Shown: positions 56,607 through 59,737 of the stretch, piece after piece | How positions within the stretch are numbered: the first letter of the stretch is position 1 | How the letters are laid out: the number at the start of each line of letters is the position of its first letter | Assembly: GCA_965223415.1 (NCBI GenBank) | Contig: OZ245002.1 | Location: 1,120,001-1,184,000 of the forward strand | DNA length: 64,000 nt | Direction: 5' to 3' | Source of the DNA: Myxococcota bacterium | GTDB taxonomy: Bacteria; Myxococcota_A; UBA9160; UBA6930 | The notes under the pieces: model-generated | The model's input: only the letters and a program-made list of their open reading frames with translations | The model's database searches: none | Told to the model about the DNA's origin: nothing | Position numbers and translations under genes: made by a program

Positions 56607-57743
56607 CTAGCCCCCGCTCGCCAGCCCGGGCAGCTCGATCGCGAAGCACGCGCCCCCGAGCTCGGACTTCTCGAGGCGGATGCGGCCGTGGTGCTGGTCG
56701 ATCACGAGCTTGACGATGGCGAGGCCGAGGCCGTTGCCGTTGGCCTTGCCCGCGGTGTAGAAGGGCTCGAAGATGCGCTCCCGGATCGCCGCGGCGATCC
56801 CCGGGCCCGAGTCGGCGAGGCGAAGGTGGAGGGTGGCGTCGGCGTCCTGCTGGCAGGAGAGATCGATGCGTCCGCCGTCGGGCATCGCCTCGATGGCGTT
56901 CTGCACGAGATTGCGCAGGGCGCGGGTGAGGCGATCGGTGTTTCCGCGGAAGGAGGCGCCGGTCGGAGCGGGGAGGTCCAGCTGGACGCCGCTGCGGGAG
57001 GCCAGCTCGAGGTAGGGAGCCACCGCGGCCTGCACCAGCTCGTCCAGGTCCACCTCGGCGAGCTCCCCCTCCTGGCCGGACACCCGGGAGATCTCGAGGA
57101 GCTCTTCGCACATCCCGTTCAGGTGCCGCGCTTCCTGGAGGATGCTCTCGCGAAGGGCGGCGACGTCGTCGGGTGGTGCCTGGGCCAGGCCTTCGATGAC
57201 CGAGAGCGGGCCGCGAATGTCGTGGACGACGGTGGCGATGGCCTTGCCGATCGCCGCGAGGCAGCGGGCCTGCTCGAGCTGCTCCTGGGAGACCTGGAGC
57301 TCGTCGCGGACGGTCTCGAGCTCGTGGTTCTGTTCGACGGTCACGGACACGAGCCGCCGGTTCTCTCGGGCCAGGTTGACCCGATCCAGCACGCCGCGCA
57401 CCGAGGCCTCGAGGTCCGGCGGCGCGCAGGGCTTGTGGAGATAGGCATGGACGCGGCCGTGGTTGATGGCGTCCACGGTGGCGTCCATGTCGGAGTAGCC
57501 GGTCAACAGGATGCGGCCGACGTTCTCGTCCTGGCAGGCGATCTTGCCCAGCAGCTCGACCCCGGACATGCCGGGCATGCGCTGGTCGGAAACCACCAGC
57601 TCGAAGGCCGCCGGCGCGAACCTCTGCCAGGCCTCGTCGCCGCTGGCCGCGGTCTCGATCCGGCCGATGCGGCGGAGAGAACGCACCAGCAACTCGACGG
57701 CCCGGGGCTCGTCGTCGACGACCAGGATGCGGGGCTTGTCCAC
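56607..57743 (-). CDS. Hybrid response regulator-histidine kinase (REC-HisKA-HATPase)
   Basis: ILVVDDE, SDQRMPGMSG, VHDIRGPL, NLVQNAIEA, DSGPG, GNGLGL. Confidence 0.92.
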   Translation of the reverse strand: MDKPRILVVDDEPRAVELLVRSLRRIGRIETAASGDEAWQRFAPAAFELVVSDQRMPGMSGVELLGKIACQDENVGRILLTGYSDMDATVDAINHGRVHAYLHKPCAPPDLEASVRGVLDRVNLARENRRLVSVTVEQNHELETVRDELQVSQEQLEQARCLAAIGKAIATVVHDIRGPLSVIEGLAQAPPDDVAALRESILQEARHLNGMCEELLEISRVSGQEGELAEVDLDELVQAAVAPYLELASRSGVQLDLPAPTGASFRGNTDRLTRALRNLVQNAIEAMPDGGRIDLSCQQDADATLHLRLADSGPGIAAAIRERIFEPFYTAGKANGNGLGLAIVKLVIDQHHGRIRLEKSELGGACFAIELPGLASGG

Positions 57744-57810
57744 GATCCGTCCATCGGCCGACCCGAGAGGCGACCTGAGACCGGGGAGCTCCGCGACGGC
57801 TCACCTTGTA

Positions 57811-58010
57811 CCTCTGAGCAGGCTCTTCGGGCCTGAGTGAGACTCCGAGATGGGTTCCCGGGAAAGGCCGTCGCTGCCTGAAGCCAGAGAGCTTGTCCGT
57901 TAGATGGGCCTCCCGCCCTCGTCACCCATGCCGTGGAGTATCCGAGGCCCGAGAGCCTGCGTCTACAAGGTCCGTAGGTGAATGTGCAGGGTCGGGAGAC
58001 CCGGGTCCCA
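57811..58010 (+). ncRNA. Putative bridge RNA of the IS110 element (ends approximate)
   Basis: 5' hairpin, then two internal loops whose segments match the target flank (CCGTTAG) and the donor junction (GGAGTATC, TACAAG). Confidence 0.8.
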
Positions 58011-58033
58011 GCTTATCACGGGGAGGAGAGACC

Positions 58034-59029
58034 TTGAAGAAGTGTCATTACGTGGGCGTGGACGTCGGGGCGAAGGAGCTCGTCGTCGCCATCGACCGGA
58101 ACGGAACTCGCGAGGGCGGGCTGGTCTTTGCGAACGATCCCAAGGGCCACCAGAGGCTGATTCGGTGGGCCACGAAGGGGAATGCGACGGCGCGCGTCGT
58201 CCTGGAATCGACCGGGGTGTACGGCCTCGACCTCGCGTTCGCGCTTCACCGTGCGAAGGCGTCCCAGGTGATGGTGGCGAACCCGCGGGCCATTGCCGCG
58301 TTCGCCAAGGCATCGCTTCAACGCTCCAAGACGGATGCGCTCGATGCGGAAACGATTCTCGAGTTCGGAATGCGCATGGAGTTTTCCGCCTGGACTCCGC
58401 CGGACCCCCGAATTCTGGAGGTACGGGCCCTCTCCCGCCGCGTGGAGGCTCTGAGCAAGACCGTGACGCAGGAGAAGAACCGGCTCCATGCCAACGACCA
58501 GAGCGAGGAGCTCAGTGAGTTCGTGAAGCAAGACATCCGCGAACTGATCGAGCTCCTGGAGGGGCGAATCGATCGGCTGCGCAAGCAAGCGTTGAAGGTG
58601 ATCGAGCAGAGCCCCGAGCTCGCCAGAGACTTCGGCCACATCACATCGATCAAGGGTATCGCCGACGCAGCCGGCATCCAGTTGCTCGCCGAGCTAGGCA
58701 CCTTGCCCAAGGACATGACGACCCGGCAATGGGTCGCGCATGCGGGCCTCGACCCCCGACAGTTTCAATCGGGCACCTCTGTGCACAAGCCAGCTCGCAT
58801 CAGCAAGACCGGCAACGCCCACCTTCGCCGCGCACTCTTTCTTCCTGCGATGGTCGCTGCACGCTGGGAACCGAACGTGAAGGCCTTCTACGAGAAGCTG
58901 CTCTCCAAGGGCAAAACCAAGATGCAAGCACTCGTCGCCGTCATGCGGAAGCTGCTCCACGCCATCTACGGCATGCTCCGCCACGACCAGGACTTCCTTG
59001 GCGAGAAATTCTTCGCCACGAAGGGTTGA
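58034..59029 (+). CDS. IS110-family DEDD transposase/recombinase
   Basis: GVDVG, LESTG, KTDALDA, QSGTS, ISKTGNAHLRRAL, AVMRKL; TTG start after GGAGGAG. Confidence 0.95.
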   Translation: MKKCHYVGVDVGAKELVVAIDRNGTREGGLVFANDPKGHQRLIRWATKGNATARVVLESTGVYGLDLAFALHRAKASQVMVANPRAIAAFAKASLQRSKTDALDAETILEFGMRMEFSAWTPPDPRILEVRALSRRVEALSKTVTQEKNRLHANDQSEELSEFVKQDIRELIELLEGRIDRLRKQALKVIEQSPELARDFGHITSIKGIADAAGIQLLAELGTLPKDMTTRQWVAHAGLDPRQFQSGTSVHKPARISKTGNAHLRRALFLPAMVAARWEPNVKAFYEKLLSKGKTKMQALVAVMRKLLHAIYGMLRHDQDFLGEKFFATKG

Positions 59030-59044
59030 CGACGAAGGGAGTAT

Positions 59045-59737
59045 CTAACGGGAGCCGTCGATCCAATCCCGGAGCCGCCGGGCGGCCCCCTCGCCGACGT
59101 CGTCGAAGACCACGTCGAGACCGCCGGAGCGGCCCCAGGTGGGCTCCACGACGCTCTCGACGTGCGCGGTGATCGGCAGCCGCTGGCGATTCACCACCAG
59201 CGTGAGCACGAGCTCCGTGCCTGCGGCGACGGGGCCCTCTGCCCGCAGGAAGGCCCCATCGGGTCGGAGCGACTCGATCTCCCAGGCCACGGTGGGTGCC
59301 ATGGGCTCCTCCGGGTCGACGAGCAGCGCGTGCCCGATCGGGGTGGTGACGCGTTGGGTGGACGGCACGGAGAAGCGCTCCGGGCTGTGGCGCTCCCACA
59401 CCTCGATCACGTCGCGCAGCGTGAGGGGCTTCGGCAGGTAGTCGAGGGCGCCGAGGCGATGGGCCAGGGTGGCACCGCCGGGCGTCGGCTTGGACGTGAC
59501 CAGGATCGACGGAAGCTCCGGGCGCTCGTCGCGCAACAGGTCGAAGCCGGTTCCGTCCGGGAGTACGACGTCGCTGATGAGCAGATCGACGTCGTCCCGC
59601 CTCTGGAGCTGCTCGGCGGCCTCGGCGCAGGTGCGAGCGGCGATCACCTCGTCGCAGCAGGTGTCGAGCATGCGGTGCAGGGCGTCGGAGAACACGGCCG
59701 AGTCGTCGACCAGCAGCACGGTTCCGAGCGAAGTCAT
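59045..59737 (-). CDS. Response regulator with degenerate PilZ-like C-terminal domain
   Basis: LLVDD, SDVVLPDGTG, YLPKP; C-terminal SLRPDGAFL...GTELVLTL...GLDVVF pattern. Confidence 0.7.
   Translation of the reverse strand: MTSLGTVLLVDDSAVFSDALHRMLDTCCDEVIAARTCAEAAEQLQRRDDVDLLISDVVLPDGTGFDLLRDERPELPSILVTSKPTPGGATLAHRLGALDYLPKPLTLRDVIEVWERHSPERFSVPSTQRVTTPIGHALLVDPEEPMAPTVAWEIESLRPDGAFLRAEGPVAAGTELVLTLVVNRQRLPITAHVESVVEPTWGRSGGLDVVFDDVGEGAARRLRDWIDGSR

Follow-up and report, generated by a model that had tools for sequence, protein, structure and literature searches.

An IS621-like insertion sequence of the IS110 group with a predicted bridge RNA and a probable right-half-matched insertion in a Myxococcota bacterium

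Results

Structure of the element and its recombinase

We describe an insertion sequence of the IS110 family, together with the bridge RNA that it appears to encode, in a 64-kb window of DNA from a Myxococcota bacterium (contig OZ245002.1, positions 1,120,001 to 1,184,000; coordinates are those of this whole stretch, and features lie on the + strand unless stated otherwise). The element spans 57807-59046, with CT at both junctions: the left copy of this core lies at 57805-57806 and the right copy at 59045-59046. From left to right, it comprises a non-coding left end of 227 nt (57807-58033), which begins with the right donor TGTAC (57807-57811) and is predicted to encode the bridge RNA; a recombinase gene of 331 amino acids with a TTG start and a TGA stop (58034-59029), preceded by GGAGGAG at 58022-58028; and a right end of 17 nt after the stop (59030-59046), where the left donor (LD) GGAGTAT (59038-59044) forms the last bases of the element.

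The recombinase was identified by its homology to Pfam, NCBIfam and PDB entries. It contains the domains DEDD_Tnp_IS110 (PF01548; 92.2 bits, E-value 3.8e-26) and Transposase_20 (PF02371; 73.8 bits, E-value 1.5e-20), and it matches the NCBIfam equivalog NF033542, 'IS110 family RNA-guided transposase', with 218 bits versus a cutoff of 140; the element belongs to a family that NCBI annotation models already name as RNA-guided. Residues 3-320 align with the solved transposases of ISCro4 (PDB 9T56; 4.2e-49), the best-scoring solved relative, used here for protein comparison only, and of IS621 (2e-46). Residues D10, E58, D101, D104 and S246-G247 align with D11, E60, D102, D105 and S241-G242 of IS621 (native numbering, to which PDB chain numbering adds 2), among which D11, E60, D102, D105 and S241 are reported to be essential (Hiraizumi et al., PMC11208158). 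Elements of the IS1111 group, which have the same recombinase family, are described as carrying the long end on the right and the short end on the left, along with longer sub-terminal inverted repeats (PMC11208160). With 227 nt on the left and 17 nt on the right, the end lengths observed here are the opposite of that pattern, which places the element in the IS110 group and not in IS1111.

For comparison, one genome-collection scan supplied three relative loci: L001, from a Gemmatimonadota metagenome-assembled genome (MAG; 83% protein identity), in which the left junction is lost at a contig end; L002, from an uncultured-bacterium MAG (82%); and L003 (59%), which lacks a left end. The closest annotated relatives were L004, on the Salinibacter ruber plasmid pSR118 (49.7% identity), and L005, on the Acidisarcina polymorpha plasmid pACPOL3 (45.3%). 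IS621 itself was read from L006, an E. coli plasmid record annotated 'IS110-like element IS621 family transposase'.

Layout and pairing of the predicted bridge RNA

The IS621 bridge RNA has been described by Durrant et al. (2024, PMC11208160), and structures are available (8WT6-8WT9, PMC11208158). According to the structural report, its target loop consists of a stem, a 3-nt linker, a 9-nt left target guide (LTG), a 1-nt linker, a stem-loop, a 2-nt GU linker, a 7-nt right target guide (RTG) and a 2-nt handshake guide, and the donor loop is analogous (PMC11208158); the LTG is the longer of the two target guides (PMC11208160).

The left end of the window element can be read in the same order. 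A 5' stem-loop (CAGGC/GCCTG, 57819-57835) is followed by the target-binding loop with its closing stem (57850-57929), where 57850-57855 pairs with 57924-57929 and 57858-57869 with 57907-57921 in constrained folds. After ...CCG, this loop presents the LTG TCGCTGCCT (57871-57879; read as TCGCTGC-CT and placed by the IS621 architecture), a single G, the inner hairpin AAGC-CAGAGA-GCTT (57881-57894; stem 57881-57884/57891-57894), a GT linker, the RTG CCGTTAG (57897-57903) and the handshake guide AU (57904-57905). The donor loop presents the left donor guide (LDG) GGAGTATC (57935-57942), the inner hairpin AGGC-CCGAGA-GCCT (57945-57958; stem 57945-57948/57955-57958), recognised in the sequence and not in minimum-energy folds, the right donor guide (RDG) GTCTACAAG (57961-57969) and the handshake guide GU (57970-57971). 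When the guides were held unpaired, the target-loop closing stem and inner hairpin formed in 5/5 RNAs (window, L002, L004, L005 and IS621).

Under the strand rules given for IS621, in which the bottom strand is the partner of each loop's 5' guide and the top strand that of its 3' guide, core included (Durrant et al., PMC11208160), and with the addition of handshake guides (PMC11208158), three of the four main guides of the window copy match their junctions. The RTG forms 7/7 Watson-Crick pairs with CT-AACGG on the top strand, the LDG matches 59038-59045 at 8/8 positions, and the RDG at 6/7, its last six nucleotides, TACAAG (57964-57969), pairing with CT-TGTA. Both handshake guides pair at 2/2 positions, AU with positions 6-7 (AT) of the donor, and GU with positions 6-7 (AC) of the target; the latter was also found in L002 and L004.

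An initial annotation of this DNA had proposed an IS621-type bridge RNA, on the grounds that CCGTTAG (57897-57903) and CTAACGG (59045-59051) are reverse complements, as are TACAAG (57964-57969) and CTTGTA (57805-57810), that GGAGTATC (57935-57942) recurs at 59038-59045, and that hairpins with AAGC/GCTT and AGGC/GCCT stems lie between the guides. All of these were found at the places given, and the layout itself held, as the guide order, linkers and handshake dinucleotides are those of IS621 read from L006.

The chance occurrence of these matches was estimated from 20000 dinucleotide-preserving shuffles of the left end. A left donor match of at least 8 nt arose in 173 shuffles, a right donor match of at least 6 nt in 174, and a right target match of at least 7 nt in 242 (each out of 20000), while the three together were obtained in 0/20000, so that the set of matches goes far past what chance would give.

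Two other features of the left end were observed. Positions 57819-57835 are approximately the reverse complement of 57943-57959, and the folds favour pairing the two in a duplex of about 17 bp, a pattern that L001 fits less well; this could be an alternative conformation in which the donor loop is masked, or could simply arise from two similar G+C-rich hairpins. In addition, an extra hairpin of about 40-50 nt (57985-58022), not present in IS621, separates the donor loop from the ribosome-binding site, and the changes found in its 3' arm in L001 and L002 (T to A, C to T) keep or improve pairing.

Independent copies and conservation of the guide loops

The initial annotation had suggested a search for other copies, and those found give the same boundaries. 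On the left, similarity between the window and L002 ends at CT|TGTACC; on the right, similarity ends at GGAGTAT-CT|, and all right flanks begin with AACGG (window, L001 and L002; 3/3). Because the flanking genes are unrelated and the boundaries are shared, these copies represent independent insertions, and the boundaries first proposed are right.

Identity between the three copies was concentrated in the two loops (57853-57992), which agree at 137/140 positions between the window and L001, 137/141 between the window and L002, and 138/141 between L001 and L002. The corresponding values for the coding sequence were 788/996, 758/996 and 763/996. The left end 5' of the loops was 61%, 72% and 42% identical, respectively (L001 being cut at the contig start), and the left end 3' of the loops 73%, 76% and 93%. 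In three independent copies, the loops are therefore 97-98% identical versus 76-79% for the coding sequence, which argues that the RNA, with its guides, is functional and that the copies have one shared specificity; this is the strongest internal evidence. Substitutions in the loops among the three copies were too few for an analysis of compensatory changes. One base differs in the LTG, where the window has C and not T at 57872.

The right flanks of L001 (1226-1250) and L002 (3511-3536) share about 25 nt past the right target (AACGGATCGG..CAGC) and then diverge. The window right flank shares only AACGG with them. This suggests that the usual target of the lineage belongs to a longer host motif that is conserved or repeated. 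In L002, a 1-nt deletion relative to the window and L001, near aligned position 58300, splits the reading frame and reflects either a decayed copy or an assembly error.

Among the matches listed in a protein search, 119 other clusters showed 64-88% identity, and almost every one lay on a contig of 1-3 kb; only a few of those listed had a name, which was 'transposase' or 'IS110 family transposase'. The window protein is alone in its cluster, on a contig of 5.83 Mb. Judging from these matches, the lineage appears to be widespread in environmental data. A DNA search of the left end against plasmids gave no match.

Comparison with IS621 and other annotated relatives

Like IS621, the window element has both protein domains and the catalytic residues, a left end that is long and a right end that is short, and CT as its core. 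Its predicted RNA likewise runs from a 5' stem-loop through the target loop (LTG/hairpin/RTG) to the donor loop (LDG/hairpin/RDG). Both RNAs have GU as the linker ahead of the RTG and AU and GU as handshake dinucleotides, and the donor GGAGTAT-CT-TGTAC is nearly identical to that of IS621 (ACAGTAT-CT-TGTAT in L006; common form xxAGTAT-CT-TGTAx). A -35 hexamer lies at the same distance from the element end in both. The two differ in protein sequence (36% identity by tblastn), in target-loop specificity and in RTG pairing, which covers 7 nt in the window versus 5 Watson-Crick and 2 wobble pairs in the IS621 copy of L006, where the LTG also contains one wobble. The inner hairpins of the window RNA are shorter, and the extra hairpin between donor loop and start codon has no counterpart in IS621. 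The window element also differs by a right end of 17 nt after the stop, versus about 100 nt in IS621, by its TTG start and by its host of 70% G+C.

Both L004 and L005 share the loop layout, the handshake dinucleotides and the -35 position of the window element, whereas their left target guides differ from that of the window. L004 has the same right target, AACGG, with 7/7 pairs to its RTG, and three LTG mismatches; it appears to use an AT core, both of its target guides ending in the matching dinucleotide. L005 has CT at both junctions. Its LTG (442-450) shows three mismatches in register, and 9 contiguous bases match if it is shifted by one base (by eye), possibly because of a slip in a C-rich run, or because the core should be assigned differently.

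Predicted promoter and mechanism

A -35-like hexamer, TTGACG (59026-59031), lies in the right end and overlaps the stop codon of the recombinase gene. In 7/7 elements compared, exactly 15 nt separate the TTGAC/TTGCA hexamer from the element end. Once the ends are joined, TACCTC (57809-57814) would occupy the -10 position of the junction promoter, 17 nt past the hexamer; the same position holds TATTAT in IS621, TATCTA in L004 and TATGTT in L005. No sigma-70-like site was found in the integrated element. The fixed -35 distance, with no such site found in the integrated state, fits the junction-promoter model put forward for IS621 (PMC11208158), and transcription from the junction may be expected in this host by analogy.

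By the same analogy, the element would leave as a circle, its right and left ends joined at the CT core. The circle junction would bring the right-end -35 to the left-end -10 and lead to transcription of the bridge RNA and recombinase. The donor loop would then pair with the joined ends, GGAGTAT-CT-TGTAC, and the target loop with a target around a CT core, where the recombinase would exchange strands. The gene family, catalytic residues, boundaries, guide complementarities and conservation are shown by the sequence comparisons; circle formation, transcription, present-day activity and the choice of this particular site are what we infer for the element, its activity being predicted from the sequence.

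Evidence weighing against the assignment

Overall, 57807-59046 is very probably an IS110-group (IS621-like) insertion sequence with an apparently intact recombinase and bridge RNA, and with a probable right-half-matched insertion. Several results weigh against this assignment. The unconstrained fold of 57807-58034 did not produce the two-loop structure (z = -0.91, with 41/200 shuffles as stable), the donor-loop hairpin was lost in constrained folds to pairing with the 5' stem-loop, and no convincing closing stem for the donor loop was found by eye or by folding. Rfam 15 returned only three sub-threshold, unrelated families for 57600-59200 with E up to 10, and no family at the gathering score for the whole window, although whether Rfam has a bridge-RNA family was not established. 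The comparison of lineage flanks covered two left and three right flanks only. Both blastn and tblastn searches of the element against the 64-kb window gave the element itself as the sole match, that is, one copy. TACCTC matches the TATAAT consensus at 2/6 positions (by eye), and the frameshift in L002 implies that decayed copies exist in the lineage. Finally, the window LTG forms 3 Watson-Crick pairs, 2 wobble pairs and 4 mismatches over its 9 positions with the left flank, the Watson-Crick pairs being those of the core itself and of the C before it.

The first of these results, a minimum-energy fold no better than those of shuffles and the lack of an Rfam match, would be expected if the matches were chance similarities in a non-coding leader, with no guide RNA at all. 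We consider this extremely improbable, since the joint matches never arose in shuffled left ends, since the layout, the handshake dinucleotides and the agreement between guides and flanks recur in L002, L004, L005 and IS621, and since the island of 97-98% identity coincides exactly with the two loops. The covariance-model and folding check proposed in the initial annotation had a divided outcome: the target loop appeared in the constrained fold, but Rfam gave no match and the unconstrained fold resembled shuffles.

The element could also be a fossil, its gene and RNA looking intact in a copy that no longer moves. The single copy in the window, the weak junction -10 with no promoter-like site in the integrated state, the frameshift in L002 and the non-cognate site would all agree with this. 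Nevertheless, the reading frame is full-length and keeps all catalytic residues, the guide loops are 97-98% conserved among otherwise diverged copies, and the lineage is abundant, with the 119 clusters among the matches listed lying mostly on short contigs, as expected for repeats that break assemblies. A fossil therefore seems unlikely, without being negligible.

Target specificity and the insertion site

The target loop specifies approximately TCGCTGC-CT-AACGG or, in a wobble-tolerant form, TYGCYRC-CT-AACGG. The occupied site has the left target (LT) GGCTCAC (57798-57804), in host DNA, and the right target (RT) AACGG (59047-59051), also host DNA, which pairs with the RTG. This site fits the core, the right half and the handshake positions, and does not fit the left half: only LT positions 5-7 can pair with the LTG (2 wobble, 1 Watson-Crick), while LT positions 6-7 (AC) pair with the donor-loop handshake guide. 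The best same-sense match of the left end to the left flank GGCTCAC-CT is 5 nt long, a length reached by 11187/20000 shuffles. In L002, by contrast, the LTG TTGCTGCCT fits the left flank TCGCCAC-CT with 6 Watson-Crick and 3 wobble pairs, or 9/9 when G-T/U-G wobble is allowed; a wobble-tolerant fit of this kind was obtained with 32/16384 random 7-mers. LTG complementarity is therefore a feature that holds for the lineage and not at the window insertion.

As the window LTG misfits its left flank and the L002 LTG fits, GGCTCAC-CT-AACGG is probably not the cognate target. The cognate site of the lineage appears to be close to the L002 site, with which the window site shares only CAC-CT-AACGG. The initial annotation had reconstructed GGCTCAC-CT-AACGG as the target, and had considered that the guides match both the target and donor junctions and that the recombinase is intact with a specificity of its own. 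The reconstruction describes the occupied site correctly, but not the target specified by the RNA; the match stands for the donor and for the right target (7/7), and fails at the left target (4/9 mismatches), whose guide had gone unmentioned; and the gene is intact with its own target loop, whereas the donor half is nearly that of IS621.

The host sequence at this site is a perfect 9-bp palindrome split by the insertion, with its left arm CGACGGCTC at 57794-57802 and its right arm GAGCCGTCG, the reverse complement of the left, at 59052-59060. Joining the flanks in a script rebuilt the palindrome around the core and right target and, folded as DNA, the rebuilt empty site reached -12.4 kcal/mol, a value equalled by 3/1000 shuffles. 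Its loop is ACCTAACGG, which contains the core and right target. The flanks were contiguous before the insertion, because joining them rebuilds this palindrome. On the right side, a response regulator, a receiver-domain protein, is encoded on the - strand (59045-59737), and the right CT core lies inside its TAG stop codon; on the other side, the - strand carries the gene of a hybrid receiver/HisKA/HATPase histidine kinase (56607-57743). Without the insertion, these form a compact same-strand pair, with the response-regulator gene upstream of the kinase gene and about 60 nt between them. The split palindrome directly follows the response-regulator stop codon and may act between the two genes as an intercistronic hairpin or attenuator. 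The rebuilding of both the palindrome and the gene pair argues that the two flanks were neighbours from the start and that the left mismatch dates from the insertion.

The alternative is that the element inserted at a fully cognate site and that the left mismatch came later, through rearrangement or mutation of the flank or through drift of the LTG. Some guide change did occur, the window LTG being one base off that of L001 and L002 (57872), and IS110 elements are reported to be able to mediate deletions and inversions (PMC11208160). However, the flanks rebuild a perfect 9-bp palindrome, whose folding is equalled by 3/1000 shuffles, together with a compact gene pair; the difference at 57872 neither creates nor removes pairing with the left flank; and four substitutions in 7 nt would be needed while the adjacent palindrome arm stayed perfect. 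We judge this later origin of the mismatch to be quite improbable. The window copy most likely represents a right-half-only, non-canonical insertion in the loop of a host palindrome after the response-regulator stop codon, as far as can be read from guides and flanks.

Other searches around the site were negative. Neither the donor junction, with up to 3 mismatches (0 matches in the window), nor the empty-site motif CACCTAACGG (0 matches in the 3 relative loci) was found elsewhere; for the predicted target TYGCTGCCTAACGG, likewise at up to 3 mismatches, the window contained 10 matches versus 9.58 expected, none convincing. Taken singly, the flanks of the window, L001 and L002 gave no hairpins beyond those of shuffles. 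At the target-loop entry, 57867-57874 (GCCGTCGC) has its exact reverse complement, GCGACGGC, in the left palindrome arm (57792-57799). This was judged to be probably due to chance: the segment overlaps the closing stem and a conserved linker, L001 and L002 carry T at 57872, and by a rough estimate an 8-mer match somewhere in the left end is not rare. The G+C content of the element (62.7%) is lower than that of its flanks (70%), which was counted as a sign of foreign origin.

Discussion

An insertion directed by the core and one target arm has a counterpart in IS621. A 2026 preprint reports that core plus single-arm complementarity suffices for IS621 insertion in vitro, and that right-target-only events could not be scored in vivo, the native RTG being short (bioRxiv 10.64898/2026.08.31.748434). 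The window copy has the pattern of such half-match recombination, with core and right arm matched, although it is one natural insertion and not an assay.

For ISPpu10, a stem-loop encoded by the target is reported to add specificity, natural targets being hairpin-forming (bioRxiv 10.64898/2026.03.19.712850). In that case the hairpin is located 5' of the core, with the left target involved, whereas the window palindrome has arms on both sides, with the core in its loop; no palindrome like it was found at the L002 site. Any role of the host hairpin in site choice is speculation. One such role would be that the core and right target are exposed in the loop while the left target is buried in the stem, so that DNA structure licenses an insertion matched on the right half only. 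We regard this as doubtful. If true, IS110 elements with a long RTG would have a second, structure-assisted way of choosing natural sites, and the near-invariance of the guide loops, despite gene divergence of more than 20% among the copies, would reflect selection on a host motif that is fixed and widely available.

In its host, the element marks a mobile insertion between a response-regulator gene and a hybrid kinase gene; it lies on the opposite strand and may uncouple their co-transcription. It reveals no new mechanism. It adds a natural bridge-RNA system from a host of 70% G+C, with a 7-nt RTG and perfect handshake pairs, features which, in the form of a long RTG and handshake pairing, are reported to improve IS621 recombination when engineered (PMC11208158), and it could serve as an orthologue for testing bridge recombinases. 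The points of note are the near-invariance of the guide loops and the probable natural half-match insertion into a hairpin loop, whose mismatched left half is a natural case bearing on the extent of pairing that a bridge recombinase requires.

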